In this document: positions 4,314-57,907 of the stretch, piece by piece
Numbering within the stretch: position 1 is the first letter of the stretch
How the letters are laid out: each line of letters opens with the position of its first letter
Virus record (IMG/VR): IMGVR_UViG_2914436621_000001
Location: 53,490 to 117,489 of that record
Length of the DNA stretch: 64,000 nucleotides
Source of the DNA: a virus
Taxonomy: Duplodnaviria; Caudoviricetes
Reading direction: 5' to 3' (one strand)
The notes under the pieces: model-generated
Seen by the model: only the letters and a program-made list of their open reading frames with translations
The model's database searches: none
What the model was told of the DNA's origin: nothing
Translations under genes and position numbers: made by a program

Positions 4314-4550
4314 TTGCCCAAAATTTGCCCAAAAAATAACCTCAGACAGACCTAGTTTTTGATTAAAAACCTATTCTGTCTGAGGCAAGCTTAAGGCTAA
4401 AACCTAGAAACGGAGAGGGAGGGATTCGAACCCTCGGATACCCCTAAAGGCATCAACAGATTAGCAATCTACTCAACAATTCTTCTAAGGCTTGATGCAG
4501 AAGCCTTGTGAAAATTGCCAAAAAACAAATTCCCCCATTTCTCCCCCAAA
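4312..4550. promoter_or_regulatory. attP region with putative integrase arm-type repeats
   Basis: Tandem ATTTGCCCAAA x2 at about 4312-4333 and related ATTGCCAAAA / TCCCCCA(AA) motifs at about 4514-4550 flanking the tRNA core. Confidence 0.55.
4411..4470 (-). other. attP core: 3' half of tRNA-Ser(GCT) (anticodon arm, long variable arm, T arm, acceptor 3' strand)
   Basis: Minus strand reads AGATTGCTAATCTGTTGATGCCTTTAGGGGTATCCGAGGGTTCGAATCCCTCCCTCTCCG; the 5' half (acceptor 5' strand, D arm) is absent. Confidence 0.88.
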
Positions 4551-26119: not shown

Positions 26120-26836
26120 ATGCAATCCACCATCGCTTCATTTCAAATCACCGCTCAGTCTGCCTGGTCAACGCTACTCATCTGCGATCGCCAAGCCCGC
26201 AAAGATGCAGCTAAGGTTGGCCGCTTCACCCGCTCAACCTACCGCATTTTGAAAAGCCCAAGCGCTATCAAAACCTACCGCTGCATTGGGTTAGCGCTTC
26301 AAATCGCTGGACTGACGGCGATCGCTCTTGGCTCGTCTATCCGTGAAGCTGTCCGGGTCTTCCGGCAATGGGCTGATGCCTACGTTGAATCGTGCCTGGA
26401 GCAGCCTGCGATCGAGGTAGTAGAGCCTCAACAGGTAAGCGAACCCCATGAGCGTTGCGAGTTCGTAATGCTGCTGAACGGGTACACCATTGCGGCTTCG
26501 CCCGAAAGAGCGGCGCAAGTTAGAGCAGAGCAGAACGCCTTGGCTCAAGCCATGATGGGCCGTGGGTTTACCGTCTCTGATCCCTGGAGTCTTCCCCTAG
26601 AACAGGCTGTGATCGAAGAGGCGATCGTTCAGCCTCAACCCTCTCCTCAACCCTCTCCTCAACCCTCTCCTCAACCCTCTCCTCAACCCTCTCCTCAACC
26701 TCTGTTGCTCTTGCCAGCCGCAGCGGAACTCGTTCAACCCAAGAGCAAGCGCAGCAGATCCCGCAAAGCGGAGGCGGCTCCAGCTCAACCCAAGGGCAAG
26801 CGCGGCAGACCTCGTAAGGCTGAGGTGGTAGCGTAG
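26120..26836 (+). CDS. Moron protein with hydrophobic segment, PQPS repeats and C-terminal AT-hook-like KRGRPRK
   Basis: GGAG RBS upstream; stop abuts the portal stop. Confidence 0.7.
   Translation: MQSTIASFQITAQSAWSTLLICDRQARKDAAKVGRFTRSTYRILKSPSAIKTYRCIGLALQIAGLTAIALGSSIREAVRVFRQWADAYVESCLEQPAIEVVEPQQVSEPHERCEFVMLLNGYTIAASPERAAQVRAEQNALAQAMMGRGFTVSDPWSLPLEQAVIEEAIVQPQPSPQPSPQPSPQPSPQPSPQPLLLLPAAAELVQPKSKRSRSRKAEAAPAQPKGKRGRPRKAEVVA
26633..26700 (+). repeat. 12-bp tandem repeat (CCTCAACCCTCT) x5 plus partial
   Basis: Direct reading; encodes PQPS repeats. Confidence 0.95.
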
Positions 26837-32395: not shown

Positions 32396-32986
32396 TTATC
32401 GATTGATAGCACGTTCGCGATCGCGCTGTCGTCGAAGCTGCCGATAATTTCCTTCAGCAACCTGCCCGGCAGGGGTGTTTGTTTCATATTGCCTCAACGT
32501 TGCATTGTCGGGCGTTAGCTTGCCGTTGCGGACGATCGCGTACTGGGTACCTCCTGCCCGCCCTGCAACAGGTCGAGAAAAGCCAGCAGACTCATAAGCC
32601 ACGGCACGGGTTGCACCTCGACTGTCTCCAATGACGGCATTGCATTCATATTTAAATCCATCAGGGCGAGTGGAGGCATCGTGAGTTATGATTCGACGGA
32701 TTTTGAGAGCGGCTAAATCCGCCTCTCGTCCCTTTAACGCTCCGGCAGTCGAACTGCCATTGACGCTAAATGAAACCGAATGTGAATCTGGATCGAAGAA
32801 GTCAGGCAAGATGTTTAAGCTAACTTTGTTGTCGCCAGACTTAAACTCATAGGTTTGAAAGCCACCTATTTTTTCGGCAGTTACCCCATCTGGTAATTTG
32901 GGCTGGCGACCGCCCTTAACCTCGCTAGAACTTTTGACGGCAAGCGCAAACTTCCCGCTTTTCCAAGAGCCGCCTTTGCTTGCCAT
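32396..32986 (-). CDS. MASKGGSWKSGKF-tagged protein 3 (possible GNAT-like fold)
   Basis: Shared N-terminal tag; R...YESAGF resembles the GNAT C-terminal motif (weak). Confidence 0.8.
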   Translation of the reverse strand: MASKGGSWKSGKFALAVKSSSEVKGGRQPKLPDGVTAEKIGGFQTYEFKSGDNKVSLNILPDFFDPDSHSVSFSVNGSSTAGALKGREADLAALKIRRIITHDASTRPDGFKYECNAVIGDSRGATRAVAYESAGFSRPVAGRAGGTQYAIVRNGKLTPDNATLRQYETNTPAGQVAEGNYRQLRRQRDRERAINR

Positions 32987-32995
32987 CAGATTTGC

Positions 32996-33649
32996 CTAAA
33001 TTTCCATTAATTGAACAATGGTCGATCGCCCCTCAGTTCTCTTCCCGGTCACCGTAAACCGAGACCCTGGAGGATAAAGGACTTCTCGCTCCCCTCTGTA
33101 GGAGCTAAGACGGCTGAGGTCTCTAGCATTCTTGCCAGTTGCATTGATCTCAAACTGCAAGTTACCCGATCGCCGCCGATCAGCCCTGGCAGATGTGCTC
33201 ATGAATCCCTTGTCGGTGTAGGTTTCGCCAACCCTAATCGACGAAATCACACTTTGAGAAACCCCTATCCCTCGATAAACAGTTCCTGTATGAGGTGGCA
33301 GCTTTTGTAAAGCCGATGCAGCAAAACGACCATCTAGCTCAAAGTTGCGACGGGCGCGATCGCTGAGATAGCTCAAGTCGCCCCCTCTAAGCAGAGTGTT
33401 GATGTTGCTGTAGCCATAGGTCGTGTAGTAGCGGAGGGCGGCGTACTCTTCCAGGTTGAGGTTGCCTAAATCCTTCGATCGCCCCTCTCTCATGTACCGC
33501 TTCAGCATCCTCTCCCTGGCACCGCCTCCCTCCATGCTCTTGAGATAGGTTTGGCGTAATTCCTCGGTGGAAGCAGTCTGGGTGGGGGCAGCTTGCATTT
33601 TCACGGGAGCAAACGTCCCGCTTTTCCAACTGCCGCCTTTGCTTGCCAT
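32996..33649 (-). CDS. MASKGGSWKSGTF-tagged ADP-ribosyltransferase (VIP2/C3-like, R-STS-ExE)
   Basis: YT..GYSNINTLLR, VYRG, FMSTS, EREVL catalytic motifs. Confidence 0.92.
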   Translation of the reverse strand: MASKGGSWKSGTFAPVKMQAAPTQTASTEELRQTYLKSMEGGGARERMLKRYMREGRSKDLGNLNLEEYAALRYYTTYGYSNINTLLRGGDLSYLSDRARRNFELDGRFAASALQKLPPHTGTVYRGIGVSQSVISSIRVGETYTDKGFMSTSARADRRRSGNLQFEINATGKNARDLSRLSSYRGEREVLYPPGSRFTVTGKRTEGRSTIVQLMEI

Positions 33650-34916: not shown

Positions 34917-35516
34917 TTAGCCCTGTTCCGCTGCCCGACGAGCAGCTTTGGCAGCTCTGCGTTCAGCTTCCTGTCGCTGCTGCAAGGCATCGTTTCTTTG
35001 CCGTGCATCTCGCTCCATCCTTGTGAAGGATGGGTTCCTGCCCGATCGCCCAACCAGTTCAGATCGGAACGTCTGAACAACTCTTTCGTTGTTTCTTTCA
35101 GCGGTAGACATTCGGTTGTACAGGGATTCTGCGATCGCCTGCGCCCCAGCGCTGACACGAACCCCCAAACCCGCATCTGAGGAGGCGATCGCCTGAATAC
35201 TTTGATTACTGATGACTGCGATGACGACATCCGCCTTGCCTTCAGCAGACAGTCGGTCAAAAGTGTCTGGATTTTTTAGATATTGCAATCCTTGCTCCAG
35301 TCGAGTGGTTGGGCCGCCCAATTCCTGCACTTCTCCCGATCGCTGATCGAATGGAGTGCTTTGTAGCGCCTTCACCTCTGCAATAGTCTGCTCAGCAAAT
35401 GAGGAAACTTGGCTGTCAGTTGGAGGGCGATCGCCATTTAAGGCTTCAGCCCCACCACTTTTTGAGGTGGCCGCAGCAAATTTCCCGCTCTTCCAAGAGC
35501 CGCCCTTACTCGCCAT
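34917..35516 (-). CDS. MASKGGSWKSGKF-tagged protein 1
   Basis: Shared N-terminal tag; start overlaps ParB-like gene end; Arg-rich C-terminus. Confidence 0.8.
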   Translation of the reverse strand: MASKGGSWKSGKFAAATSKSGGAEALNGDRPPTDSQVSSFAEQTIAEVKALQSTPFDQRSGEVQELGGPTTRLEQGLQYLKNPDTFDRLSAEGKADVVIAVISNQSIQAIASSDAGLGVRVSAGAQAIAESLYNRMSTAERNNERVVQTFRSELVGRSGRNPSFTRMERDARQRNDALQQRQEAERRAAKAARRAAEQG

Positions 35517-36192
35517 TCAGCCGTACCCCTAGTTCCATTATTTTGAGGAGCGTTTTTGTGTCGTCCTTTGTCTCCAACACGACCTTGAAACCTTCCCACA
35601 TCTTCTTTTGAGCGGAGGACAGCACGATCGCCAACGGATATTTCTCCTGCGGCGATTTGGAGACAGCGGTATCATCCTCCCCTTCCTGTTCTCCTTCCCC
35701 TAGAACAGAGCGATCGCTATCACTGTCATCTCCATCGCCAATCACCTGGGATGACTGGAATTCAACCCCCTCGTCTTCAAGGAACTTGTCAATTTCTGCG
35801 GGATCGAAGCCTGTCAGCCCTAAATCAAAATCCAGGCTATCTAGATCTTCGAGTTCGATAGAGAGAGCTTCATAGTCATAGCCTGACTCGGCAGACCGAT
35901 TGTCTGCTAACCGTGCCGCCTTCTTCTGAGCTTCTGATAGGTCAGCTCGGACGATGACGGGTACGCGGTCTAGACCCAGTCTAAGAGAGGCTTCTCGTCG
36001 TCCATGCCCCTTCAGGATGATGCCCTGCTCATCCACTACGATGGGTTGGTCGAAACCGAATTCTGCGATCGCTCCTGCAATCTTGTCGATCTGGCTGGTG
36101 GGATGCTTTTTGACATTGTTAGCGTAGGGAGTGAGGCTGTCAGGGTGACGCCACTCGATTTCAGCAGAAAAGACGGTTTTAGATTTGGACAT
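35506..36192 (-). CDS. ParB/Srx N-terminal domain protein
   Basis: LTPYANNVKKH, IAEFGFDQPIVVD, ILKGHGRREA, RLADNR motifs. Confidence 0.9.
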   Translation of the reverse strand: MSKSKTVFSAEIEWRHPDSLTPYANNVKKHPTSQIDKIAGAIAEFGFDQPIVVDEQGIILKGHGRREASLRLGLDRVPVIVRADLSEAQKKAARLADNRSAESGYDYEALSIELEDLDSLDFDLGLTGFDPAEIDKFLEDEGVEFQSSQVIGDGDDSDSDRSVLGEGEQEGEDDTAVSKSPQEKYPLAIVLSSAQKKMWEGFKVVLETKDDTKTLLKIMELGVRLNGE

Positions 36193-36234
36193 AGGGGACA
36201 AAAACGCTCTCACCTATGGGATTTGTCCAGAACC

Positions 36235-37206
36235 TCAAACATCCATCAGATCTGCTAGCATCTCCGTCACCTTGCCCTGGGCATTGACGCGATTGTCGTC
36301 GTAACGCATGAGAACCTCAGGCTTGCGGTGACGGCTCAGCTTCATGGTTTCCCGAATATTGCCATTGCTGGCATCCAACGCCGCCGTAATCCCGCTGTGG
36401 CGGCAGCGGTGGGGTGAGAACCGCTTTTTGATACCCGCCTTCTCTGCCAACTGAAACCGAACTAAGTGATAGAGTCCGTCTCCAGTCAAGCGTTGACCAA
36501 AGTGGGCGCGATCGACTGCAATAAATAGCGGTGACTTGGGCGCGCGATCGCCCCTTGCTTCCAGCCACACCTGGAGGGCTTCAACTGCGGCACTGCTCAG
36601 GCTAACCGATTCTTTCTGGGTGCCCCTCCCCTTCCCCAGGATGGCTAGAGTTTTGGCTTCAGGATTAAAGTCTGCAACGTTGGCAGAACAAATCTCATTA
36701 CGCCGCAGCACATTATCCCAGAGCAGCCGTAGGAGGGCGTAGTCACGCTTACCCTTAAGCGTTGAGCGATCGACGACTTGAAACAGCAGCTTGAATTCCT
36801 CTGGAGTAATGCCCGTGGTATCCCGATAGGTCTCGGTTTTCTCCAGTTCAATTTCTTCTAAGCTCCAAACACATTTGCCTACTTTCTGTGCAAAGGCAAC
36901 GAGTGACTTAATTGCAGACAGCCGTACATTGACGGTGGATTCGCTCAGCTCTCGTTTAATCAGTTGAGCTTTATAGTGCAACACCAGTTTGATGGCAGTG
37001 GCACGCTCCAACTGAAGGAAATGCGCGACAAGTGCCGGGTCAGGCTCTTTGCCACTGATGACTTCAAAGAAATCCTTTAATCCCCTGGCATAAGTGCGAC
37101 GGGTGCTCTCGCTCCGCTTGTCTGCCAGTAATTCTTGGATGAGATCTCGCTCCTCTACCAAATCGAGAAAGAAGGGAGACGAGGAAGAAGGGGCGATCGC
37201 ACTCAT
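36235..37206 (-). CDS. Second tyrosine recombinase (XerC/D-like resolvase)
   Basis: SAM-like N domain (STRRTYARGL, STVNVRLSAIKS), RDYALL..LRRNE, GKG, SPHRCRHS, RH...Y. Confidence 0.92.
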   Translation of the reverse strand: MSAIAPSSSSPFFLDLVEERDLIQELLADKRSESTRRTYARGLKDFFEVISGKEPDPALVAHFLQLERATAIKLVLHYKAQLIKRELSESTVNVRLSAIKSLVAFAQKVGKCVWSLEEIELEKTETYRDTTGITPEEFKLLFQVVDRSTLKGKRDYALLRLLWDNVLRRNEICSANVADFNPEAKTLAILGKGRGTQKESVSLSSAAVEALQVWLEARGDRAPKSPLFIAVDRAHFGQRLTGDGLYHLVRFQLAEKAGIKKRFSPHRCRHSGITAALDASNGNIRETMKLSRHRKPEVLMRYDDNRVNAQGKVTEMLADLMDV

Positions 37207-40769: not shown

Positions 40770-41054
40770 TCACTCTTTGTCGTCTGCCAGCTCACCTGAC
40801 TCCTCCCACTTCTTGAGGCGAGTCCTTACCTTCTTGTTGACTAGCACACTGTTGCTGCCGCTGGAATAAGCATGAAATCCAAGAACAATGCACAGCCTGA
40901 TGAATTCTGCATCCTTCCACCCGTCCGCATCCGCGATCTCCTGCATCTGCTCTAAAAACTGAGGAGGTAACGACGTTCTCACCTCGATCATTTTGGGTGT
41001 GTTGGTCTGTGGAGACATCGAATCTACGTTAGAAGGGTGTTCTATCGCACTCAT
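40770..41054 (-). CDS. RHH/CopG-like regulator divergent from transfer-like operon
   Basis: EVRTSLPPQFLEQMQEIADADGWKDAEFIR RHH pattern. Confidence 0.6.
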   Translation of the reverse strand: MSAIEHPSNVDSMSPQTNTPKMIEVRTSLPPQFLEQMQEIADADGWKDAEFIRLCIVLGFHAYSSGSNSVLVNKKVRTRLKKWEESGELADDKE

Positions 41055-41099
41055 ATTACCGGAATCCTTGACACGATAGAAAAATTTTACTCCTTTAAG

Positions 41100-41181
41100 T
41101 CTCCGTTCTATCACCGTTAGAACGGAGATATGCTATGTTTTGCCTATACAACAACACAACATGGGTACAACGTTGTACCCA
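41100..41181. promoter_or_regulatory. Divergent control region with two perfect inverted repeats
   Basis: TCTCCGTTCTA-N7-TAGAACGGAGA (41100-41128) and 20-bp palindrome TGGGTACAACGTTGTACCCA (41162-41181). Confidence 0.7.
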
Positions 41182-41216: not shown

Positions 41217-41783
41217 ATGCCCTATTCCAAGCAAGATTTGGCGAAGTTGTACGAGATTCACCCCAATACCGTTTACAACATTTGCAAAGCAATGGGGGTT
41301 AGCAATAAGTCGAGCTACCCTGACGAGTTTTTGCCCAAGTTTGAACACGCTCAGCAATTGGTCGCTGAGGGTGGTTATGACGAAGTTCGCAAGCACTATC
41401 AGCCGCAAGCGAAGCAGGTTCACCATCAAACCGCTGACACCCAAAGTGCAGATGCTTACACCAACTCCTCTGAAGAAGATGCTGCAACTGGGTTAGACAT
41501 GGAGATTTTTGAAACCGTCAACGATCTGATGAAAGGGAAGGCACAAGAAGCTGCCCAGATTGCTGCACCCCTATTCGCTATTCATTTCAATAAAGAGCTG
41601 AGTGGGGACAACTCCCACCTAAAAAAGGGATTTGCCACATTGCGGCGGAGATTGAAGGAGACGACTGCGGGCGACGGGAAGAACTTGCTGACTACGGGGC
41701 TTCAGATGAGATCTGCGCTGCCCTCGATGCAGCCACAACTGAGCTTATCGGCAGCATCAACCAACGAATTGACCAACGAGTAA
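41217..41783 (+). CDS. HTH protein, first gene of transfer-like operon
   Basis: GGAGG RBS; SKQDLAKLYEIHPNTVYN HTH. Confidence 0.7.
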   Translation: MPYSKQDLAKLYEIHPNTVYNICKAMGVSNKSSYPDEFLPKFEHAQQLVAEGGYDEVRKHYQPQAKQVHHQTADTQSADAYTNSSEEDAATGLDMEIFETVNDLMKGKAQEAAQIAAPLFAIHFNKELSGDNSHLKKGFATLRRRLKETTAGDGKNLLTTGLQMRSALPSMQPQLSLSAASTNELTNE

Positions 41784-41800
41784 AGCAGGGCAAATTACTG

Positions 41801-41983
41801 ATGTTCCACAGATTTCTTCAGGGCGGAATGATTGCTTCTAGTGTTGTCATCGCGGTTGGCACGATCGCCAATGTGCTATTCCCACCAGCGATCGTCCTCA
41901 CCGCTGCGATGCTCGGCGGGTTGGCTCAAGCGTCCGCACCTGAACCCAGAGTTGTTTATGTCACAACGAGGTACAGACCATGA
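41801..41983 (+). CDS. Small membrane protein
   Basis: Two hydrophobic segments; stop overlaps next start. Confidence 0.6.
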   Translation: MFHRFLQGGMIASSVVIAVGTIANVLFPPAIVLTAAMLGGLAQASAPEPRVVYVTTRYRP

Positions 41984-42387
41984 CCATGAGCCGAATCATC
42001 AAAGCTGCCATTGCGATCGCCGTCCCTCTGCTTTTAGCTGGGGGGTCTGTTCTATCAATCAGGCATCACGCCCTTGAAGAATCTCAGGACTTAATCGATC
42101 GCCAGGGGTTGAACGGGATGCTGTCACCCATCGGGGAGGATGCCCAGCAAACCATGTTGTCTACGGCCAGAGATGGGGTGTTTACTGGATTAGCTGTTGG
42201 GTTGGTTGGCGCAACTGCGATCGCCTATGGTGTATCGCTGTTGCGAACTCCTCAGCCTCCATCAACCGGTTCAACTGAATTGAAAGACTTGCTCTCTCAG
42301 CTCAATTTCAAGGTTGATGAGCTGCGATTTGAGGTTGGACTTTTCAACATTGCCAATGACCATCAACCCGATAAGGAGGGACAGTGA
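41980..42387 (+). CDS. Two-TM membrane protein
   Basis: Hydrophobic segments, coupled start/stop. Confidence 0.7.
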   Translation: MTMSRIIKAAIAIAVPLLLAGGSVLSIRHHALEESQDLIDRQGLNGMLSPIGEDAQQTMLSTARDGVFTGLAVGLVGATAIAYGVSLLRTPQPPSTGSTELKDLLSQLNFKVDELRFEVGLFNIANDHQPDKEGQ

Positions 42388-43244
42388 TGAGGCAGGCAGA
42401 ATCGGTGCCCGTCGATTACGAGATTCCGTTAGGTGAGAGCAAGCCTGTTCGCCGGGAAACTCAGCCGATCGCCAATCCCAAAGCGGTGGCCGCACTGAAT
42501 GTCTCACGCCACCTTCAACGCCACTGGCGCTCCTATGCCGTTGGTGCTGGGTTCTCTGTGTTGATGCTGGTGTACACATCGCAGTGGCAAAAACAGCAAT
42601 CGCCCCGACAGTTAGACAACCCGACTGATGCACGGGTGATTCCGGCTTACAACGAGTCTCAGCTCATCGTTGAGCAAATGGGTGCGCTGGAGCAGAGGGA
42701 GCGTAATCTTTCGGCATTCCTACATGAGGAACGGCAGCGCACCCTGATTGCGCTTGCCCAAGCCTACCGAGCGCTTGCCACGATGTACATCTCCAGCGGC
42801 GGCCATCCCTGCAATGGTCGGACGGTGCTGGAATGCCTGAGGACGTTTGAGCCAAACCGGATAGCGGAACTGCGATCGCTGTCCTCTCGAAATTGGTCAG
42901 CCGTAGATGCCAACCCCAACAACGTCCTCCTTCCGCTGTTAACCAAAGCGGCAGAGGCCGACAAAGTTGAAGGGCTGCGCCTGGCGGTAATCCTGGAAAT
43001 CCCCTCCACCTCGCGTCCTCAATGGATGCAGGATGAGTTGGATTTGCGTTATCCGCTACTGGCTTCCGGCATCCCACCGGAAGAAATGCAGCCTCGACCC
43101 GAAACCCTCGCCAATCTGCTAGGGGGTGTGCGTGACCAGCGGCAGCAAATTCTAAACGGTTCGCAGGAGAAATCCGCTCGAACCGAGCGGTGCTTGTCGA
43201 TGCCAGAAGAGGAACGAGTTTTAGATCCTGGGTGCCTGCAATGA
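42384..43244 (+). CDS. Single-TM membrane-anchored protein
   Basis: GGAGG RBS, TM segment then coiled coil. Confidence 0.7.
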   Translation: MMRQAESVPVDYEIPLGESKPVRRETQPIANPKAVAALNVSRHLQRHWRSYAVGAGFSVLMLVYTSQWQKQQSPRQLDNPTDARVIPAYNESQLIVEQMGALEQRERNLSAFLHEERQRTLIALAQAYRALATMYISSGGHPCNGRTVLECLRTFEPNRIAELRSLSSRNWSAVDANPNNVLLPLLTKAAEADKVEGLRLAVILEIPSTSRPQWMQDELDLRYPLLASGIPPEEMQPRPETLANLLGGVRDQRQQILNGSQEKSARTERCLSMPEEERVLDPGCLQ

Positions 43245-44512
43245 CACGTTTACCTTGGTTTGTTGCGGGTGGTTCGATCGCCGTTGCTGGGTTTTTCGGT
43301 GCGCGATCGCTTCATATGAATATCCCGGATGCGGTCGATAAATCGCATCCAGGCAAAATCGTGGTGGAGTTTGCCCAACCCAATCCAGCCCAGGGTAAGC
43401 TACTCAGCCTGGTCGCGGCTGGCAGCACCGCTGGTTGTTTATGGATGGGGATGCGGGGGGATTCTGCTCAAAGTAGCGAAACGGCATTGCCAGTCAAAAC
43501 GGCTCCTGCTATCAGGCAGTCGTTCGATGAAGAGGATTTAGCAGTTCCCCTAGAACGGGTTACCCCGGCGCGCTCGGCTCGATCGCAGTCCATTGCCAAA
43601 GAGCAGCCGACAGCCTCTGTTCCTGAAGAGTCGGTTCTGTTTGAGCGATTATTCAACCATCGCAAACGTCATCTGTTAGTGCCTGCCGAAACGGGCGCGG
43701 GGAAGACGACGTTTTTGTTAGGGGCGATCGAATACTTCTGGCACCGCACAGGCGGAGAGCTGGAGGTGTACGGCTCCACGGTCAAGCCTAGCCCCTGGTT
43801 GGGTTTGGAGGATCTAAAAGCTGGCGACGGCAAGCCACACGTTTTGAAACTGACGATTGATGCCCCACATCAAATCATCAAACTGTTGGAACGGCTGCGT
43901 TGGCTTGAGCGCAAGCTGGTTGCAGCTCAACAAGAGCGCGATCGAGCTGAGCAAGCAGGGCAAGTGTATGTTCCCAAAGTCCGCACGCTGATCGTGCTGG
44001 ATGAGTGGAACAAGACTTTAGCGCTGGCTCAAAAATTCGATCGCCTCAACTCCGGCAACAGCGACGACGAACCCAGGCTTCGAGCGGAAGATGAGCTGAT
44101 TGCGCTAGTTGAGACCTTTCTGCTCATGGGTCGGGAGGATGAATTTGCAGTCTGGCTGTTTGGGCAGGATCATCAAGTCCAAAACGCCAAAATCAATACG
44201 GGCTACCAAAAATCCTTTGGGATTGTAGTTCCCGGTCGGCTTGGGTCGATGCAAGGGATGGAGCAAGCACTCACGGGGAGGACGGCTATCGTTGGTCAAC
44301 CGCGTGGCAGGGAGATTTTGCAAGAGGCGGAGCGGGTTGCAGAAGCTAGCCCAGAAACGACGATTATCTACAGCAACTTGCACGGGCATGAGGTTCTAGA
44401 AGTTCCGCATTTGCCCGGTATCAAGCAACAACGTCTGTTTGCTCGTCAAGCCCCATCCAATGTGGTTCAAGGACGATTTAATCCAGAGCCGCTGAGTGAT
44501 GTGTGGGCATAA
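43241..44512 (+). CDS. Membrane-anchored FtsK/HerA-superfamily ATPase
   Basis: Two N-terminal TMs, Walker A AETGAGKT, Walker B LIVLDEW, GRE...WLFGQ motif. Confidence 0.8.
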   Translation: MTRLPWFVAGGSIAVAGFFGARSLHMNIPDAVDKSHPGKIVVEFAQPNPAQGKLLSLVAAGSTAGCLWMGMRGDSAQSSETALPVKTAPAIRQSFDEEDLAVPLERVTPARSARSQSIAKEQPTASVPEESVLFERLFNHRKRHLLVPAETGAGKTTFLLGAIEYFWHRTGGELEVYGSTVKPSPWLGLEDLKAGDGKPHVLKLTIDAPHQIIKLLERLRWLERKLVAAQQERDRAEQAGQVYVPKVRTLIVLDEWNKTLALAQKFDRLNSGNSDDEPRLRAEDELIALVETFLLMGREDEFAVWLFGQDHQVQNAKINTGYQKSFGIVVPGRLGSMQGMEQALTGRTAIVGQPRGREILQEAERVAEASPETTIIYSNLHGHEVLEVPHLPGIKQQRLFARQAPSNVVQGRFNPEPLSDVWA

Positions 44513-44539
44513 ATTTCAACCAATCTACAGGAGAATCTC

Positions 44540-44869
44540 ATGAGTCAGCAGAACGATCGCACCAAATTTGACGTATTCAGTATCAACCTTCTCAATCCAA
44601 TTGAAGCGTCTTGGAAAATTGCTGGATGGTTGATGGTTGGCATCCCGTTTATGGTTGCCGTTGTCTGGGGCATCTACAACCCAGACAACTTATTCAGCGT
44701 CCTCGGCATCTCTGGCCGTAGAGCTGGAGGTGCATTTATCAACGAAACTCGTCCAGTCGGAGAATCGCTGCTAAACGGTGCATCCGGCACCGGATTCCGG
44801 CCTGGGATAACTGGCGGAACGCAAGATGAGCAGCGTGATTCCCTGCGCCCTGGTGTAGTTGAGCAATGA
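44540..44869 (+). CDS. Membrane protein
   Basis: AGGAG RBS, TM segment. Confidence 0.65.
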   Translation: MSQQNDRTKFDVFSINLLNPIEASWKIAGWLMVGIPFMVAVVWGIYNPDNLFSVLGISGRRAGGAFINETRPVGESLLNGASGTGFRPGITGGTQDEQRDSLRPGVVEQ

Positions 44870-45327
44870 TTCAAGGGTTGCGGTGGCGACATATCGGCTG
44901 GATGTGTCTGTTCCTACTGCTGTTATTTATGACCGCAACGGCAGAGGGGGCCTACCGGCTCAACTGGCAGATTGCCTCTAAGAGTTGGCAGCAGTTAACG
45001 GCGGGAGGTCAAGGTCTGTGGCAGAAGCAGACAGAGGTGGCGCAGCAACTTGATCGGGCATCGCAGCAGCGATACGGTTATGACCCGATCGAGCCTCGTT
45101 CATCAGAATGTGTCACCGCTCCACAATCCAGCCAGGTCTTGCAAACGGGGGAACTGTCCTCTCTGCTATCCAATCCGCCAGTAAGCCGAGAGGATGCGAT
45201 CGCCCGATTAGAGCAACCCTACTGCCAAGTTGTAACCGGAGCGGATATTTGGCTGGTTGGCGCTAGTCAGTTTTTGGAAGTTTATTACAGTCCAGTTTCA
45301 TTTCAGTTAAGGGAAGTTGAACAGTGA
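44866..45327 (+). CDS. Exported/membrane-anchored protein
   Basis: Signal-peptide-like N-terminus, coupled to previous gene. Confidence 0.65.
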   Translation: MIQGLRWRHIGWMCLFLLLLFMTATAEGAYRLNWQIASKSWQQLTAGGQGLWQKQTEVAQQLDRASQQRYGYDPIEPRSSECVTAPQSSQVLQTGELSSLLSNPPVSREDAIARLEQPYCQVVTGADIWLVGASQFLEVYYSPVSFQLREVEQ

Positions 45328-45500
45328 ATCTGTTGAGAAATTTATTCGGACGACAGAAAGTGATGCGTCTGGAGACCTGGCATCCTGTGTGGTCTGACGA
45401 TGTGTATCATGAGCCGCCTCCAGATGAACCAGTCTGGTCTGACGATGTTGACGACGATGACGATGACAGCCTTCTTGATGAAGAAGACGAGGGACGGTAA
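45324..45500 (+). CDS. Small acidic peptide (not in ORF track)
   Basis: GTG overlapping previous stop; 58 aa with PVWSDDV twice and poly-Asp. Confidence 0.45.
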   Translation: MNLLRNLFGRQKVMRLETWHPVWSDDVYHEPPPDEPVWSDDVDDDDDDSLLDEEDEGR

Positions 45501-45576
45501 CTGTTGAACTCTGGCTGTCGGCATTTCTAGAGCTTTACTACAACCCAGTTTCGTTTCAACTCAGGGAGATTGAGCC

Positions 45577-45738
45577 ATGACTAAGAACTACAAAACCTTA
45601 TTCGTTTCGCAGGACGGAGACGCTGATTTGCACACCGAGGCAACAGGACATCAGCGTATTGATGGAGTGAATGGATATAACGCAGTGCCCATCAATAATG
45701 TGTATCAAAACGGCAAATCTGCAAAACAGTCAAAATAA
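45577..45738 (+). CDS. Small hypothetical protein (not in ORF track)
   Basis: GGGAG RBS, 53 aa MTKNYKTLF... Confidence 0.45.
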   Translation: MTKNYKTLFVSQDGDADLHTEATGHQRIDGVNGYNAVPINNVYQNGKSAKQSK

Positions 45739-45747
45739 GAAGCTCTC

Positions 45748-47352
45748 ATGACTACCGCTGCTCCCCCTAGAACGCTCGACCTGATTGAACGGATTGCCGC
45801 TCACGATGGGCACATCATTGGCGCTTCCATGACTGGGAGCGGCAAAACCACAACCATGCTGGCGGCGATCGCGGCCATTGATCACCTCACCAATGGTCAA
45901 GCAGTTTGGCTGTGTGGCTCTGGCAAAGCCTCATTCTGGATGGGATTAGAGGATCAGATCGGTGAGGACGGCCTCAGTCGCGTCCTCACCGCTTCAACCT
46001 CCAAGCCTGAATCGATTGAGCCGCTACTAGCGCGGTTACGGTTCGCCATTGCTCTGCAAGAGAAACGAGAGCAACAACGGCTGGACAAAAGCAGACGGGG
46101 GAAAACGGTCAACCCCAAGCCAATTTATGTTGTTTTGGATGAATGGCTGATTCTGCTCAAAGTAGCCAAACGCCATAGCAAAGAAGCTTATCAAGAGCTG
46201 ATTGACTTGGTTGAGACGATCGCTCTCAAAGGACGGCAAGACCGTGTATTTATCTGGCTCTGGGCACAGGGCCATCATTGTAAGACGCTGCATCTAGATG
46301 GCGACTTGCGAAACAATTTTGGTGTGATTGCGCTGGGTGGTGCTGGTAACAATTCCAGTGTTGAGAGTGCGATCGCCGATGCTGATCTGATTCCCAACCG
46401 GTTTCAGCGAGAACAGCTAGAGGTAACCTACAAAGAACTGTTTGCTGAAGATCCAACCGGGAGAGTTTTTTACACCTCGCTTGGCGGACACGTTCTCGGC
46501 AGAACGATGCAATTGCCCGACATGGAGGCGCAACGCATCTTTGAAGCAAGTCGCTCTAGATTCGGATTTAAAGCGAAGCCTCCATCCAAGACGAAACAAG
46601 CCAACGAATTAGCCTCTGATTCCTACGATTCGGGAGAAGCAGAAGAGACCCCAGAATGGGTGCGATTGCGTCAAGCGGAGCTGCGGCTCAAGACCAGAGA
46701 ATATTTAGATAAATCCCTGACGGCTGAGCAACGTTGGAATTTAATCACTCTCACCGTTGGGGTAGTGGTCTCGACTGTCTATCTGGTTCCGCCCTTCAGC
46801 GGAGCGCTCCAGGCGGCATGGGATGTAGGAGCGCAAGCGGCTGGAATTGCAGGTCAAGCGGTTGACACCGCTGGCAGCGTCATTAATTATTTTGCGCCAG
46901 ATCTCAAAGCGACTCCCAAGGTGGGAGAAATCATTGCCGGGTATCGCGTCACCAGTCCGTTTGGGAAGCGCGATCGCCCCTGCCCTACCTGCTCTGAGGA
47001 GCATAAAGGCGTTGACCTGGGTACCCCAACAGGTACCCAACTTTATGCCGTTGGCGAACCTGGAAAAACGGTTGAAGTGAAATGTTGGTGGGATGGAAAT
47101 GGAGGTGGCAATGTCGCCACGTATGACTCAATGGGGTCAACGTGGCAATACCTTCACCTGAGCCGATGTGCCGCAGGAACACAGCGAGTGGGCAGCATCA
47201 TTGCTCAGTCGGGCAGTTCCGGCATAGGGACAGGGGCACATTTCCACATTGAGCAAATCCAAAATGGCGAGAAATTGCCCCCACCCAAGTGGGCAATTTG
47301 GGCATCGCTCACCGGCAAACTGCCAGAGCCAGCGATCGCCCGTAGCAATTAG
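45748..47352 (+). CDS. FtsK/HerA-like ATPase fused via a TM helix to an M23 peptidase
   Basis: SMTGSGKT, YVVLDEW, GRQ...WLWAQ; TM; VTSPFGKR, HKGVD, YLHL, TGAHFH (M23 HxxxD/HxH). Confidence 0.85.
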   Translation: MTTAAPPRTLDLIERIAAHDGHIIGASMTGSGKTTTMLAAIAAIDHLTNGQAVWLCGSGKASFWMGLEDQIGEDGLSRVLTASTSKPESIEPLLARLRFAIALQEKREQQRLDKSRRGKTVNPKPIYVVLDEWLILLKVAKRHSKEAYQELIDLVETIALKGRQDRVFIWLWAQGHHCKTLHLDGDLRNNFGVIALGGAGNNSSVESAIADADLIPNRFQREQLEVTYKELFAEDPTGRVFYTSLGGHVLGRTMQLPDMEAQRIFEASRSRFGFKAKPPSKTKQANELASDSYDSGEAEETPEWVRLRQAELRLKTREYLDKSLTAEQRWNLITLTVGVVVSTVYLVPPFSGALQAAWDVGAQAAGIAGQAVDTAGSVINYFAPDLKATPKVGEIIAGYRVTSPFGKRDRPCPTCSEEHKGVDLGTPTGTQLYAVGEPGKTVEVKCWWDGNGGGNVATYDSMGSTWQYLHLSRCAAGTQRVGSIIAQSGSSGIGTGAHFHIEQIQNGEKLPPPKWAIWASLTGKLPEPAIARSN

Positions 47353-47359
47353 GAGGAGT

Positions 47360-47896
47360 ATGGAACGTCGCCACTACGTCAGTTTAGATAGCCTTTTATT
47401 CCTGCTAGCCGGGACTGTCATTGTGACCAGCTTCGCGCCATCTGCCGAAACTGTTCGCCAAATTCGAAATGTTGCGATCGACGGGGAAGTTTCAGGATTG
47501 AGTGCAGAACAGCGGCAAAATGCGGCTGCCATCATCTCAACGGGGACTGCAATGGGCATGAGCGATCGCGATATCCAGATCGCACTCATGGCGGCGCTGC
47601 AAGAGTCGTCGTTGAAGAATCTGGATCACGGTGATGATTGGTGGTTTCAGAAGATGGGCTGGGGTAAGTCCGACTCGGTTGGTTTGTTCCAGCAGCGCGA
47701 TTCATGGGGGTCTAAAGAATGCCGCATGGAACCCTCATGCAGCTCCAAACTGTTTTTTAATGCGCTCCAGCAGGATGGCGATCGCGCAGCCAAATCACTT
47801 GGAGCCGCAGCTCAGAAAGTGCAGAATTCCGCGTTTCCAAGGGAGTACGACAAATGGGAAGACGACGCAGCCGCACTGCTCAACGCAGCAAGGTAA
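47360..47896 (+). CDS. Exported lysozyme-like / lytic transglycosylase-type protein
   Basis: AGGAGG RBS, signal/TM, ALMAALQES, DSVGLFQQR..WG, AAQKVQNSAFP..Y motifs. Confidence 0.75.
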   Translation: MERRHYVSLDSLLFLLAGTVIVTSFAPSAETVRQIRNVAIDGEVSGLSAEQRQNAAAIISTGTAMGMSDRDIQIALMAALQESSLKNLDHGDDWWFQKMGWGKSDSVGLFQQRDSWGSKECRMEPSCSSKLFFNALQQDGDRAAKSLGAAAQKVQNSAFPREYDKWEDDAAALLNAAR

Positions 47897-49250: not shown

Positions 49251-49483
49251 GAACGCGGCGTTTGGCGATCGAATTGTGCATGGATGATGCTGCCACCCAT
49301 CTAAGCTGAACATGTCGCAGTGCTGATTACGTTGTTAGAAAATCGGCTCTAGCCCTTATTGATGCTTCTCTTCATCAGTTGGAACAACGCGGAGACGCAT
49401 GTTGACCTACAGGTTAACCCGTGGGACATAATTACTGTATGACAGCTTGCCAGCTTTACAGCAGTAACGGAGGAGCGATCGCT

Positions 49484-50032
49484 ATGGCGCTGATTGCTGC
49501 AAAATGGACAGTTAAAGACTATCACCGCATGATTGCTGCTGGTATCTTGGAAGGTCGCCAGGTCGAGCTGCTGAATGGGGAAATTATTGAAATGCCGCCA
49601 GAGGGACCACCTCATGCTTATTTCAGCGATGAAACTGCCGACTACCTAGAGCGACTACTAGGCGATCGGGCAAAGGTGCGTGAAGGGAAGCCAATCACCC
49701 TGCCTAACGACTCAGAGCCAGAGCCAGACATTTCTATCGTTCAGCCGTTAGGAGAGGTGTATGCAGAGCGTCATCCCCATGCGGAGGATGTGTTCTGGTT
49801 GATTGAATTTTCAAACACCAGCTTGACTAAGGATCTAGAAGATAAAACCAAGATTTACGCTAGTGCCCAAATTCAAGAATATTGGGTTGCTGATCTGCGA
49901 AACAAACAACTGATTGTCTTTCGATCGCCTGCAAATGGGGATTACACATCAGAGAACACGCTAACCCAAGGTGATGTTGCTCCGTTAGCATTCCCTGATG
50001 CTTTTATTTCAGTTAGGCGGCTGGTGGGGTAG
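49484..50032 (+). CDS. Uma2 (DUF820) family endonuclease-fold protein
   Basis: WTVKDYHRMIAAGIL, VELLNGEIIEM, SEPEPDI, K.KIYASAQIQEYWVADL. Confidence 0.92.
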   Translation: MALIAAKWTVKDYHRMIAAGILEGRQVELLNGEIIEMPPEGPPHAYFSDETADYLERLLGDRAKVREGKPITLPNDSEPEPDISIVQPLGEVYAERHPHAEDVFWLIEFSNTSLTKDLEDKTKIYASAQIQEYWVADLRNKQLIVFRSPANGDYTSENTLTQGDVAPLAFPDAFISVRRLVG

Positions 50033-51715: not shown

Positions 51716-52045
51716 ATGGCAATTCTAACTAAAGGCATCAAGCTATCGCAGCTTGCAGCAACTTCACCAGAACAAAAGGCATCTGAGATAGACAGCTTAA
51801 TCAATGCAGCCCTAAACCCAGACAAACAACATCTCGAGCAACAGTGTAATGAAGTGGATGCTCGGATTAAAGAGTTTGAGTGTCGCTACGAAATGTCGTC
51901 CGATGCAATGAAACAGCAACTTTCTCAAGGGTTGATTAAGGAAACAGCTGAAATTTGTTCCTGGTTGTTGCTTTTGAAAGTGAAAAACAACCTTAAGATG
52001 CGACCTGATGAGACACCAACCCAATCGCTTTCAAAATTACTTTAA
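51716..52045 (+). CDS. Putative antitoxin (TumA-like)
   Basis: RIKEFECRYEMSS...EICSW pattern; overlaps downstream toxin-like gene. Confidence 0.55.
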   Translation: MAILTKGIKLSQLAATSPEQKASEIDSLINAALNPDKQHLEQQCNEVDARIKEFECRYEMSSDAMKQQLSQGLIKETAEICSWLLLLKVKNNLKMRPDETPTQSLSKLL

Positions 52046-52517
52046 GACCCACGAGACGGTTCTTGAGCAGTTCAAGTCCCGGCGATTTGTTGGTAACGAC
52101 ACCCTGGAATTTCGACCCTCTAATTGCTGTTTCTTGCTTGATGGAGAAATAGGTTGCTTAGGGGGTCTTGTTATAAGAGTAGAGAAGTTGATACGAATTG
52201 TTAGCCAAGATCCTCAGGAGCCTTTAGTACAAACTGAATGGTATGCCTATAATGCTTCACTTCGCAACAATCACAATATCTTTAGATATGACAACCAGGA
52301 TGAAGACTTTAACTTTCGTCTTGGACATGCTGATCCGCACCACAAGCATACTTTCGATTGGTGTACGGGAAATGAATTATCTGAAAGTCCACTGTGGGTA
52401 GGGGCTGAGAAATGGCCCACTTTAGGTGATGTGTTACACGAATTAGAAGATTGGTATTGGAAACACAAAGAACTTCTGTCCAATCCTGAAGACTACCCTG
52501 AGCTGGACCTTCGATAA
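52008..52517 (+). CDS. Putative toxin (DUF6516/TumE-like)
   Basis: YAYN...FRYDN...PHHKH motifs. Confidence 0.6.
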   Translation: MRHQPNRFQNYFKTHETVLEQFKSRRFVGNDTLEFRPSNCCFLLDGEIGCLGGLVIRVEKLIRIVSQDPQEPLVQTEWYAYNASLRNNHNIFRYDNQDEDFNFRLGHADPHHKHTFDWCTGNELSESPLWVGAEKWPTLGDVLHELEDWYWKHKELLSNPEDYPELDLR

Positions 52518-55825: not shown

Positions 55826-56482
55826 ATGACTGAGCCTGATTTGCGATATCCCCTTCACTATCCCGCAGGCTGGAAGCGCACCACATTTCGCCAGCCGTCA
55901 CAGTTCGATCGCAACAGAACTAGAACGTTTGCCCAGGCACGTGATGAGCTGTTGAAGGAACTGGAGTTACTGAATGCAAAAAGCGTGGTTCTGTCTACCA
56001 ACATTCCGTTGCGAGGAGACGGATTGCCTTACGCACGATTCAAGCAGCCTGAAGATCCAGGTGTTGCAGTCTATTTCCGGTTTGACCAAAAGCCGATGGT
56101 GCTGGCTTGCGATAGTTGGGATCGGGTCATCGATAACGTGTGGGCGATCGCCAAACACATCAACGCTCTGCGCGGACAGCAGCGGTGGGGGGTGGGGACG
56201 CTGGAGCAGGCATTTATGGGCTATGAGGCACTGCCTGAATCGACGAATGGGCAAGCGGCTGAAAAGCAGTGGTGGGAAGTGTTGGGCGTTAGCCAACACG
56301 CAAGCTGGGATGAGGTTCGAGGGGCGTATCGCAACGAAGCCCTCTCACGTCATCCTGATCGCAACGGAGGCGATCGGACTAAATGGGATGAGTTAGAGCG
56401 GGCTTATAGGCGTGCCGAAACATCGTTTAAAATACGCTCAGAAAGTAAGTTAAACGGGGAGATAAGCCATGGCTCGTGTTGA
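55826..56482 (+). CDS. Phage protein with C-terminal J (DnaJ) domain
   Basis: YPLHYPAGWKRT, DPGVAVYF, ACDSW...N; WWEVLGV...AYR...HPDRNGG. Confidence 0.88.
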   Translation: MTEPDLRYPLHYPAGWKRTTFRQPSQFDRNRTRTFAQARDELLKELELLNAKSVVLSTNIPLRGDGLPYARFKQPEDPGVAVYFRFDQKPMVLACDSWDRVIDNVWAIAKHINALRGQQRWGVGTLEQAFMGYEALPESTNGQAAEKQWWEVLGVSQHASWDEVRGAYRNEALSRHPDRNGGDRTKWDELERAYRRAETSFKIRSESKLNGEISHGSC

Positions 56483-57130: not shown

Positions 57131-57907
57131 TTAAAGAGGTAGAGCGATTTGAGCTTCCTGAACAGGTTCTTTCTGAGATAACTGAACGGTTTTTGACCCT
57201 GCTGATGGAAAACCATCCCAAGTTCTACCATCCAAGGTTCGTCCATTTCGCTTCTTCTGAACGCCGCCCCATTGTTTGAAGAAGAAGGGAACATCCGCTG
57301 CTAGACACTGCTCACGTATTTCTCTTACCCAATCCGATTTCATTGGTCTTGCACCAATGCCGGATTCACCACCTACAATGACCCAATCGATTCCAGTTAA
57401 ATTAAGCTGTAACGGACCCAATAGTGGTTCGCAGGATAAGAATCGAATCTGAGCTGGAACCTGTCTTAGCAAATCAATTCGAGTTGTCCAAGCTTGCGAC
57501 TCAACGCTTACTCCTGCCCAAACATTGGAGGGTAATTTCCCAACTTGCTTCGCAATTTCTAGCATTCGTTCAGGCCGTTTTGTAAGTAACTGAAACTGAT
57601 GCCAGTGTGCCCTCTCCATGACCGAGATGACCTTGTGAATAAAGTCGTCTGGAACTTCTGGATGAAACAAGTCGCTCATTGAGTTTACAAAGATCAGGCG
57701 TGTTTTCTTCCAGGTTAATGGCAATTCCAATCGCTCATGCCAGATTCTAATGTCAAATCCCTGCTCGTATGGATGACCCTCTATTCCGCGCCATCGCTCA
57801 GCAAATCGCTTTGCATAGCAGTTCTTACACCCTGGACTAATTTCATCACATCCAGTTGTGGGATTCCAGGTAGATTCAGTCCACTCTATTGCTGAGTTCA
57901 TTGACAT
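57131..57907 (-). CDS. DUF5131 (phage Gp37/Gp68) family protein
   Basis: [63 protein letters not shown]. Confidence 0.93.

Follow-up and report, generated by a model that had tools for sequence, protein, structure and literature searches.

Streptomyces plasmids carry spd operons with overlapping codons, together with TraB and a Kil-Kor pair, as the available part of the source describes (PMC4447253). The Tcp locus of the C. perfringens plasmid pCW3 combines two ATPases, membrane proteins and hydrolases, and its TcpB is not required for transfer, according to the part of the source at hand (PMC6137059). FtsK/SpoIIIE genes of Bacillus and other prophages are phage-borne ATPase genes of compartment-forming hosts, and their products are proposed to transport or segregate the DNA of the phage (PMC11526630 and PMC8597652, in their accessible parts). 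The operon described here shares features with all three systems.

In the window, that is, the whole stretch of 64,000 nucleotides analyzed, 11 genes on the plus strand run from 41217 to 47896. Five of their junctions are 4-nt ATGA or GTGA overlaps and the remaining intergenic gaps measure 7-76 nt, bearing out the coupled plus-strand operon that the first-pass annotation had proposed. The first gene (41217..41783, +) encodes a soluble protein of 188 aa to which Pfam, PHROGs, NCBIfam and PADLOC assign no family, and the helix-turn-helix label that it had received is without profile support in the first three of these. Opposite the operon lies a small divergent gene (40770..41114, -), a candidate repressor gene from its position, whose 114-aa product has no family match in Pfam, PHROGs or NCBIfam and, in our reading, may have a ribbon-helix-helix look. 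In locus L024 a homolog that matches it at 45% over 65 aa (E 8e-15) is also divergent from a copy of the module. A perfect 20-bp palindrome, TGGGTACAACGTTGTACCCA (41162..41181), stands in front of the first gene at a distance of about 35 nt and is a candidate operator; its 16-nt core is unique within the window at up to 3 mismatches, with 0.07 occurrences expected. A small regulator gene in front of the operon is a trait of the Streptomyces systems as well, but their regulator is of the GntR type and the 114-aa protein has no GntR domain in Pfam or NCBIfam, so the suggested Kor-type repressor reduces to a likeness in position and palindrome.

The second gene (41801..41983, +) encodes a 60-aa protein with two TM or hydrophobic segments, and overlaps by ATGA the gene of a 135-aa protein with two TM segments (41980..42387, +), which is matched in size and topology by proteins encoded at the corresponding position in two related loci, L004 and L008. 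The 286-aa protein encoded next (42384..43244, +) has one weak TM segment and a helical extracytoplasmic part with a Cys pair; its positional counterparts in these loci have 175 and 242 aa. Between the two ATPase genes are found a 109-aa protein with one TM segment (44540..44869, +) and a 153-aa exported or anchored protein (44866..45327, +), both kept in L004 and L008 (tblastn E 1e-5 and 8e-7 for the former, 8e-9 and 5e-12 for the latter), the 153-aa protein having a predicted fold of low confidence (pLDDT 54). These are followed by a very acidic 58-aa protein with 19 D/E residues and a repeated VWSDDV motif (45324..45500, +) and by a featureless 53-aa ORF (45577..45738, +). Some of the small TM proteins may be holins, although Pfam and PHROGs give them no family match. 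The earlier count of at least five TM or exported proteins was confirmed with the 60-, 135-, 109- and 153-aa proteins, both ATPases, the lysozyme-like protein described below and, more weakly, the 286-aa protein.

ATPase 1 (423 aa; 43241..44512, +, the start at 43241 correcting 43190) is modeled with two TM helices at its N-terminus, followed by a disordered linker, a RecA-type motor domain at about residues 126-406 and an acidic tail of only about 20 disordered residues that ends in a conserved D-P-W. In ATPase 2 (534 aa; 45748..47352, +), residues 1-270 are paralogous to this domain and are followed by a linker, a TM helix (332-350) and an M23 domain; this order of N-terminal ATPase, TM and extracytoplasmic domain is that of the morphogenesis ATPase pI/Zot, encoded by the small genomes of filamentous phages (inoviruses). 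No Zot match was found in Pfam, and the module recurs in the tailed prophage of the window and in an IMG/VR provirus. The two had been described as related from their C-termini, and they are indeed paralogs, as BLASTP aligns 277 aa at 30% identity (E 5e-33), the C-terminal motifs included. Walker A reads GAGKTT152 in ATPase 1 and GSGKTT30 in ATPase 2, Walker B reads LIVLDE and VVLDEW, respectively, with DEW kept by both, and K155 and E255 are invariant in alignments of 25 and of 67 sequences.

Their proposed FtsK/HerA identity stands by fold and by distant relatives, and fails by sequence profiles applied to the window's own proteins. These proteins gave no FtsK/HerA match in Pfam, PHROGs, NCBIfam or PDB sequences, and neither matches PF01580 (FtsK_SpoIIIE; cutoff 24 bits) at E <= 0.01, unlike the FtsK/SpoIIIE genes of Bacillus and other prophages, which are found by standard profiles and for which the accessible parts of the sources mention no operon shared with genes for membrane proteins and wall hydrolases (PMC11526630; PMC8597652). 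Among 85 ATPase-region relatives, collected with a profile search, 28 match PF01580 at E <= 0.01, 8 of them above the cutoff. Structure comparison, which had been recommended, showed agreement of the fold with solved members of the FtsK/HerA superfamily, and the ATPases have an FtsK/TcpA-type fold with N-terminal membrane anchors. Neither has an FtsK alpha domain, nor a gamma or wHTH domain.

The best viral structural match (E 7e-11) was the unannotated gp129 of Nodularia phage vB_NpeS-2AV2, with homologs in vB_NspS-kac65/68. It belongs to the wider family, since the profile reaches the protein P0048 (E 1e-82) and P0048 matches gp129 (tblastn E 6e-107). As in ATPase 1, two TM segments precede the ATPase and the host is a filamentous cyanobacterium, but gp129 is a protein of 712 aa whose TM segments are separated by a long loop and whose C-terminus is extended by about 110 aa, and its gene stands alone amid replication and recombination genes in siphoviruses of 139-147 kb.

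Two cell-wall hydrolases close the operon. The M23 domain of ATPase 2 scores 35.2 bits (cutoff 28.7) and has both HKGVD419 and HFH498. The last gene (47360..47896, +, 47360 being the most likely start) encodes a 178-aa lysozyme or lytic-transglycosylase-like protein with an N-terminal anchor or signal; it scores 20.7 bits for SLT_3, under the cutoff of 27, and matches the lysozyme part of phrog_10030 at 8e-35, in agreement with the lysozyme-like exported protein noticed earlier. The hydrolase type is swapped among loci while its position is kept: the operon-end enzyme, SLT_3-like in the window, is a T4-type lysozyme (PF00959) in L004 and, by tblastn, alike in L008, with a signal or anchor as in SAR endolysins. 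Among 11 full-length relatives of ATPase 2, M23 occurs in seven and NlpC/P60 in three, and one is without a Pfam domain.

Such a pair of N-terminally anchored hydrolases at the operon end, with their interchangeable types, would also suit a wall-cutting or lysis module, in which a cytoplasmic ATPase or coiled coil controls the extracytoplasmic M23 domain across the membrane and, with the lysozyme and holin- or spanin-like proteins, lyses the cell or cuts septa, so that filaments break and lysogens or virions are released. FtsEX-EnvC provides the model for an ATPase governing a wall enzyme across the membrane, and annotation and Pfam revealed no separate holin-endolysin cassette among the phage genes of the window. 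However, the tail genes already hold lytic domains (a lysozyme at 10891-11568 and, in a hub protein, endolysin-like and CHAP parts), and in genome G401 a further endolysin-like gene lies away from the operon. The operon begins at its divergent regulatory region, outside the morphogenesis gene cluster and on the opposite strand, and most of the wider family lacks a hydrolase match nearby in a tblastn screen. A lysis cassette with an FtsK-like motor was not found in the literature searched, and we know of none. Lysis is considered an unlikely function.

Still less probable is an export or exclusion device, in which an EssC-like ATPase would export phage proteins such as the hydrolases or small acidic proteins, or would provide superinfection exclusion by blocking or expelling the DNA of rival phages and plasmids as it enters. 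The 58-aa acidic protein and the D-P-W tail of ATPase 1 could be recognition signals for such a device, and the module behaves as an accessory cassette. Against this, each protein has one ATPase domain, where EssC/EccC has several FtsK-like ones in tandem, and no FHA or WXG100 match was found with Pfam in the operon, so that the hallmarks of Type VII systems (EssC/EccC) are missing, and the hydrolases have anchors or signals of their own. PADLOC assigned no family to 10 of the 11 operon proteins, the exception being one weak mad8 match of ATPase 2 (E 0.0011).

Compared with the TraB/Spd/TraR systems of Streptomyces, the operon is alike in its membrane-anchored, FtsK-like central motor, in its peptidoglycan-directed components, in the absence of VirB4 and relaxase, and in having hosts that form chains of connected compartments. 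It differs in its two ATPase paralogs, in being carried by a tailed prophage of a diderm cyanobacterium, and in having true hydrolases (M23 and lysozyme-like), fused or anchored, where the Spd proteins are merely PG-binding. TraB has a C-terminal wHTH that reads clt repeats, whereas the operon ATPases are without it and clt-type 8-bp repeats were not found in the window. A k-mer cluster scan, which a diverged or differently built site would escape, returned HIP1-related words only, plus two repeats in coding sequence, a 12-bp tandem (26633-26700) and a triplet (45395-45458), and no clt-like cluster of short direct repeats in the operon. A family link to TraB at the sequence level was not found, the profile giving no match among PDB sequences. 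A further shared feature is a set of small membrane proteins that are little conserved and whose genes overlap at their stop and start codons, as far as the available part of the source describes them (PMC4447253).

The comparison with the Tcp locus, whose parts include the coupling protein TcpA, TcpB, TcpD/E and TcpG/TcpI, is similar. Its identity to the operon ATPases is only 10-15% for TcpA, and no equivalents of TcpF/VirB4, TcpH/VirB6, TcpC/VirB8 or the TcpM relaxase were recognized in the operon. TcpB is FtsK-like and, as a second ATPase, would match the ATPase pair of the operon. Small membrane proteins and peptidoglycan hydrolases occur there too in one locus, according to the part of the source at hand (PMC6137059).

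A remnant of a canonical type IV system with a relaxase beyond the window had been named as one way in which the transfer proposal could fail, and none is present on the contig (C148). Pfam scans of the window ORFs detected no relaxase or VirB4, as had been noted from the start, and relaxase families besides PF03432 were covered by the Pfam scans of ORFs from the window and L015. VirB4 (PF03135) has no match anywhere in the 7.31-Mb genome, the matches of PF03432 are confined to contigs C38 and C117, and those of TraG/VirD4 (PF02534) to C53 and C38.

The reading that we prefer, tentatively and at somewhat less than an even chance, is that the operon encodes a membrane-anchored FtsK-like motor with a wall-hydrolase channel for nucleic acid, similar to TraB/Spd or Tcp. 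ATPase 1 would be the core motor of an inner-membrane machine, with four small membrane or exported proteins as its partners. Two peptidoglycan hydrolases would be held on the membrane, a TM-tethered M23 peptidase and the anchored lysozyme-like enzyme, the former joined through its TM helix to a domain in the cytoplasm, which in this operon is a second ATPase copy. The channel would cross both inner membrane and wall and would work like TraB/Spd or TcpA/TcpB/TcpG. The original idea of a transfer-like operon keeps the fold, the anchors and an operon grammar like that of TraB/Spd and Tcp, and loses the C-terminal wHTH, the GntR-type Kor and an essential second ATPase, while the k-mer scan found no clt-like cluster.

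The placement of the operon within a tailed phage was borne out: gene annotation of the window identifies a myovirus-type prophage, and its host is a filament-forming cyanobacterium. The left att repeat (4409..4470, -) duplicates 62 bp from the 3' part of tRNA-Ser(GCT), with a 100% match to C148:125684-125745. The intact tRNA-Ser(GCT) lies beyond the window at C148:125685-125775 (ARAGORN: L015 8286-8376, - strand), followed by the host genes Lgt and TP_methylase, and the att repeats bound an element of about 67.8 kb that contains the phage genes and the operon.

This element also encodes an internal Xer-like tyrosine recombinase of 323 aa (36235..37206, -; PF00589, PF02899), adjoined by a ParB-like gene (35506-36213). 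In five of 12 further loci (L019, L021, L022, L026 and L030) the TM-FtsK-like gene has a recombinase homolog of 50-54% identity at a distance of 3-9 kb, and the family member of phage 2AV2 is solitary, without hydrolases, beside Holliday junction resolvase and helicase genes, a setting equally compatible with transfer and with the handling of DNA within the cell. These neighbors suggest a segregation or resolution device for the element's own DNA, in which an FtsK-like pump bound to the membrane or septum, the recombinase and the ParB-like protein would clear, partition or resolve phage or episome copies at closing septa of a polyploid filament, as in FtsK-XerCD or in the delivery of phage DNA into the spore that is reported for Bacillus phage FtsK/SpoIIIE genes. 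Phage FtsK/SpoIIIE genes have been tied to segregation in the accessible parts of PMC11526630 and PMC8597652. Such a device is judged rather improbable. It leaves unexplained the tethered M23 and lysozyme enzymes and the exported proteins of the same coupled operon. The FtsK gamma domain talks to XerD, and the window ATPases have no gamma domain. Moreover, tblastn found no recombinase within 10 kb in L004, L008, L003 and seven of the 12 further loci.

The carriers of the module vary in type and include, besides the myovirus-type prophage, an IMG/VR provirus whose TerL and MCP are different and whose tape measure has 3060 aa, Nodularia phages, and loci with a primase-helicase and an Xer-like recombinase. 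The module is an accessory cassette of several kinds of mobile element in cyanobacteria bearing hetR, a marker of filamentous forms. A comparison of filamentous and unicellular hosts had been suggested, and its outcome favors the proposal: all 14 carriers of the wider family, from eight of the 156 genera sampled, have hetR, vs. 101 of 401 genomes overall (52 of 156 genera), a link in which kin are not independent and which may reflect only the host range of one element lineage, or the larger genomes of filamentous forms, which are richer in prophages. Genome G402 also contains hetR.

If the operon does encode a channel, the machine, which has no outer-membrane part, would suffice to reach the next cell, as neighbors in a filament are divided only by membrane, wall and membrane. 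DNA may be its substrate, the septum may be its site and transfer may occur. That it is a virion-independent movement apparatus of cyanophages and other mobile elements of filamentous cyanobacteria, a septal pump that has wall-drilling enzymes of its own and passes dsDNA straight to the neighbor cell, is a more doubtful proposal; if true, it would be a bacterial counterpart of plant-virus movement via plasmodesmata and a cyanobacterial parallel to intramycelial plasmid spreading in Streptomyces.

L004 and L008 share the core gene order with the window. At two related loci a coiled coil takes the place of the second ATPase, which is therefore optional, and in the window the 3' end of the 153-aa gene has a diverged second copy (72%; 45524..45580, +), detected by repeat scan, which is probably a scar of the rearrangement that introduced ATPase 2.

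Eleven consecutive plus-strand ORFs, as called in the window, span 41217-47896. The first encodes a 188-aa product (41217-41783) and is followed by genes for two proteins with two membrane segments each, of 60 aa (41801-41983) and 135 aa (41980-42387), by a gene for a 286-aa product (42384-43244) and by ATPase 1 (43241-44512, 423 aa), which has two membrane segments and whose start is common to its homologs. Further along lie genes for a 109-aa product with one membrane segment (44540-44869), a 153-aa product with a signal or anchor (44866-45327), a very acidic 58-aa product containing 19 D/E residues (45324-45500), a 53-aa product (45577-45738), ATPase 2 (45748-47352, 534 aa), with one TM helix at residues 332-350, and a 178-aa lysozyme-like product with a signal or anchor (47360-47896), whose most likely start is the ATG behind the ATPase 2 stop. 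Membrane features of the operon proteins were taken from a hydrophobicity scan and from a structure model of ATPase 1. ATGA/GTGA overlaps of 4 nt occur at five of the junctions, and the remaining gaps measure 7-76 nt.

Just upstream, a gene for a 114-aa protein (40770-41114) points away from the operon, and a perfect 20-bp palindrome (41162-41181), unique in the window, lies between the two. The modules of the related loci L024, L004 and L008 showed no counterpart of this operator-like palindrome in front of them; L024 carries its own direct and inverted repeats at that place, and a homolog of the divergent 114-aa gene also stands before its module. The cyanobacterial repeat HIP1 (GCGATCGC) is as dense in the 6.7-kb operon (11 copies) as in the whole 64-kb window (114 copies), so that the operon DNA looks at home in a cyanobacterium.

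The first-pass annotation had described two paralogous ATPases with similar C-termini, and alignment bears this out: the proteins share 30% identity over 277 residues (E 5e-33), a stretch that includes the C-terminal segments quoted there. Both retain the lysine of Walker A and the DE of Walker B. A 31-nt stretch is 90% identical between the two genes (43460-43490 and 46149-46179), in differing reading frames. The ATPase domain was left unnamed by Pfam, PHROGs, NCBIfam and PADLOC, with traces alone from pilT_fam (E 0.051) and mad8 (E 0.0011), the latter being the sole match of any operon protein to the PADLOC defence models. PDB sequences gave no match to the window ATPases, either as single proteins or as profile A1 of the ATPase family, and metagenome contigs scanned with the same profile yielded no relative.

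In an AlphaFold model of ATPase 1 built from 14 homologs (pLDDT 73.6, about 90 in the core), a disordered linker (residues 75-129) connects two N-terminal helices to a RecA-type domain. The protein closes with an acidic tail that has a conserved D-P-W at its end; alpha and gamma domains are absent. In Foldseek the top match was TcpA, the coupling protein of pCW3 (E 5e-6), with the FtsK motor and EccC/EssC next. The tie to EssC would leave room for a role in secretion or exclusion, which we consider improbable. A profile of the two paralog families, run against 1.84 billion representatives, retrieved 495 proteins at E <= 1e-3, and many of these are plain M23 proteins because the profile contained the M23 domain. 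Among 85 relatives of the ATPase part, 28 match PF01580 (FtsK_SpoIIIE) at E <= 0.01 and 8 score above its cutoff. The fold matches and these distant kin therefore make the earlier label of FtsK/HerA ATPases correct.

Close homologs are scarce, 13 for ATPase 1 beyond the window's own and 10 for full-length ATPase 2, the named ones being all cyanobacterial. The outer domain of full-length ATPase 2-type proteins is M23 in 7 of 11, NlpC/P60 in three and unassigned in one. Gene order is common to the window, to L004 (an IMG/VR provirus, G401) and to L008 (in genome G294). First come a protein of about 135 aa with two TM segments and one of 175-286 aa with a single TM segment, then ATPase 1, another single-TM protein (109-146 aa), an exported protein (153-164 aa), an X-TM-M23 protein and, last, an anchored lysozyme. 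A coiled coil of about 290 aa, unlike the ATPase, takes the place of X in L004 and L008; there the lysozyme is of T4 type (PF00959), and an extra Zn-finger membrane protein is present. As the order is kept and X is swapped, what stays constant is a single anchored motor together with four small envelope proteins and a pair of tethered wall enzymes. The second ATPase is a local variant. A 57-nt direct repeat of 72% identity joins the end of the 153-aa gene (45271-45327) to a stretch just before the 53-aa ORF and ATPase 2 (45524-45580), and this diverged duplicate looks like a scar of the change that made the second-ATPase variant. Genome G294 holds two more copies of the ATPase module on two further contigs (L024 and L025), each preceded by a 4-TM protein and followed by a Zn-finger membrane protein. 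For the 153-aa exported protein a word-based search recovered itself alone, and an AlphaFold model from 3 sequences reached pLDDT 54; the protein atlas gave no match above the lead threshold for the 286-aa protein.

A wider family extends beyond these loci. The top viral structural match is an unannotated 712-aa Nodularia phage protein (E 7e-11), and the family profile reaches the protein P0048 at E 1e-82. In tblastn, P0048 matched 9 of 50,697 phage records, all of them from Nodularia phages, which make up six distinct phages; ATPase 1 itself matched none of the phage records. In phage vB_NpeS-2AV2 the family member gp129 (L018 8998-11136; 712 aa) stands alone, adjoining resolvase and helicase genes. 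Besides two TM segments it carries a C-terminal extension of about 110 aa, which to our own eye, without profile support, reads like an HTH. In twelve further genomic loci the core comprises two soluble proteins, one protein with 2-4 TM segments and an anchored ATPase. A Xer-like recombinase 50-54% identical to that of the window (36235-37206) is close by in five of the twelve, and a gene of about 930-1070 aa lies upstream in five, one of its products matching a solved primase-helicase (E 4e-9). The recurrence of the recombinase, a ParB-like neighbour gene and the setting of gp129 would fit a role in segregation and resolution, which we regard as unlikely. A Kovacikia megaplasmid match covers 144 aa at 27.5%, and none of the other operon genes was found in that region.

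Host distribution was surveyed with profile A4 of the ATPase family (67 sequences) against 401 sampled genomes of the phylum, the window's genome included. Matches occurred in 18 genomes at E <= 1e-8 and in 14 at E <= 1e-10. The gene hetR (PF03574), which marks filament-forming cyanobacteria, is present in all 14 of the latter against 101 of the 401 genomes overall; these carriers fall in 8 genera, and hetR occurs in 52 of 156 genera. Naive hypergeometric values for the overlap (2e-9 for genomes, 1e-4 for genera) overstate the link, since kin are treated as independent. Three of the four weaker matches also have hetR, the fourth, which lacks it, being a 1774-aa frame, and hetR is likewise present in G402, the genome of family locus L003. 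The hosts that carry a name (Myxacorys, Adonisia, Sphaerospermopsis, Trichocoleus, Pantanalinema, Kovacikia and Nodularia) are of filamentous habit.

ATPase 2 has an M23 peptidase as its C-terminal part (35.2 bits, cutoff 28.7), with HKGVD419 and HFH498 in place. The last protein (47360-47896) aligns with the lysozyme section of tape-measure phrog_10030 (8e-35), and its match to SLT_3 stays below the cutoff. In the hydrophobicity scan, TM segments hold both wall enzymes on the membrane. Such anchored hydrolases could also serve controlled wall cutting or lysis, a role that seems doubtful to us. The anatomy of the module would better suit motor-driven passage through the inner membrane and wall, with the neighbouring cell of a filament within reach and a host pattern that fits; this is held tentatively, at somewhat less than an even chance. 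The anchored motor and the wall enzymes would form a route across inner membrane and wall; the module has no outer-membrane part. Neighbouring cells of a cyanobacterial filament have a common periplasm, which would put the adjacent cell within reach of such a device.

Closest in logic to this combination of motor and envelope proteins are TraB/Spd of Streptomyces plasmids, as outlined in PMC4447253, and the TcpA/TcpB/TcpD/TcpE/TcpG part of the Tcp system, as outlined in PMC6137059. A clt-like repeat cluster was not found in the operon by repeat search. VirB4 was not found anywhere in the genome, whose PF03432 relaxases and PF02534 coupling proteins are on contigs other than that of the operon. 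A remnant of a membrane-containing virus, with a PRD1-/PM2-like packaging ATPase, was rejected: the operon has no capsid-like protein, and the module recurs in the tailed prophage of the window and in the IMG/VR provirus, a recurrence that also bears on the reading as a separate inovirus.

Literature searches turned up no account of an operon of this kind from cyanophages or cyanobacteria, a point on which supplementary gene lists, outside the search, could bear. Phage FtsK/SpoIIIE genes have been reported from Bacillus and from a Chloroflexus virus contig (PMC11526630, PMC8597652). Should the module prove to move DNA, no earlier conjugation-like transfer system with a single motor would be on record from outside Actinobacteria and Firmicutes, nor any from a tailed phage. 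The picture of how phages spread and lysogenise, and of gene flow, would then change for multicellular cyanobacteria, with bloom formers such as Nodularia among them. Whatever its function, the finding defines a family of membrane-anchored FtsK-like ATPases that is uncharacterised and invisible to profiles. In our sample this family is restricted to hetR-bearing cyanobacteria, and one of its forms fuses a cytoplasmic ATPase with an extracytoplasmic M23 peptidase. The cultured Nodularia phages with a family member offer a place to test it.

The operon shares its element with a full contractile-tail set on the minus strand at 4.6-32 kb (fibres, baseplate J/W/V, tape measure, sheath, tube, major head protein, portal and large terminase). 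Window 4409-4470 repeats, over 62 bp and at 100%, the 3' part of tRNA-Ser(GCT), and the intact gene, followed by the host genes for Lgt and a tetrapyrrole methylase, is 67.8 kb rightward on the same contig; thus the phage genes and the operon are within one att-bounded element. Two related integrase modules stand in direct order at tRNA-Ser(GCT), at window 3219-4470 and at C148:124442-125775 of the host contig (7043-8376 of its piece L015). The first integrase, left of the 62-bp fragment, goes with that fragment, and the second, 50% identical, with the intact tRNA, and two further genes are common to both modules, which suggests tandem integration of related elements. In G401 the operon is flanked by the portal and terminase genes of another type of phage (phrog_38 TerL, phrog_212 head protein, a 3060-aa tape measure). 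PHROGs gave DNA methyltransferases and unknowns alone for L008, which was therefore left out of the phage-context count.

Four minus-strand prophage proteins (21138-21680, 32396-32986, 32996-33649 and 34917-35516), one of them an ADP-ribosyltransferase (PF03496/PF01129), open with the same 13-residue leader, MASKGGSWK(S/G)G(K/T)F, which may be a targeting or propeptide signal, for example for virion-packed proteins. A 12-bp tandem repeat (CCTCAACCCTCT, about six times, 26633-26700) lies within ORF 26120-26836, which adjoins the portal gene. Genes in the right half of the element include one with a TumE-like toxin domain (52008-52517), a Uma2 nuclease-like gene (49421-50032) and a DUF5131 gene (57131-57907); two DnaJ-domain ORFs (55826-56482 and 63410-64000) also occur.
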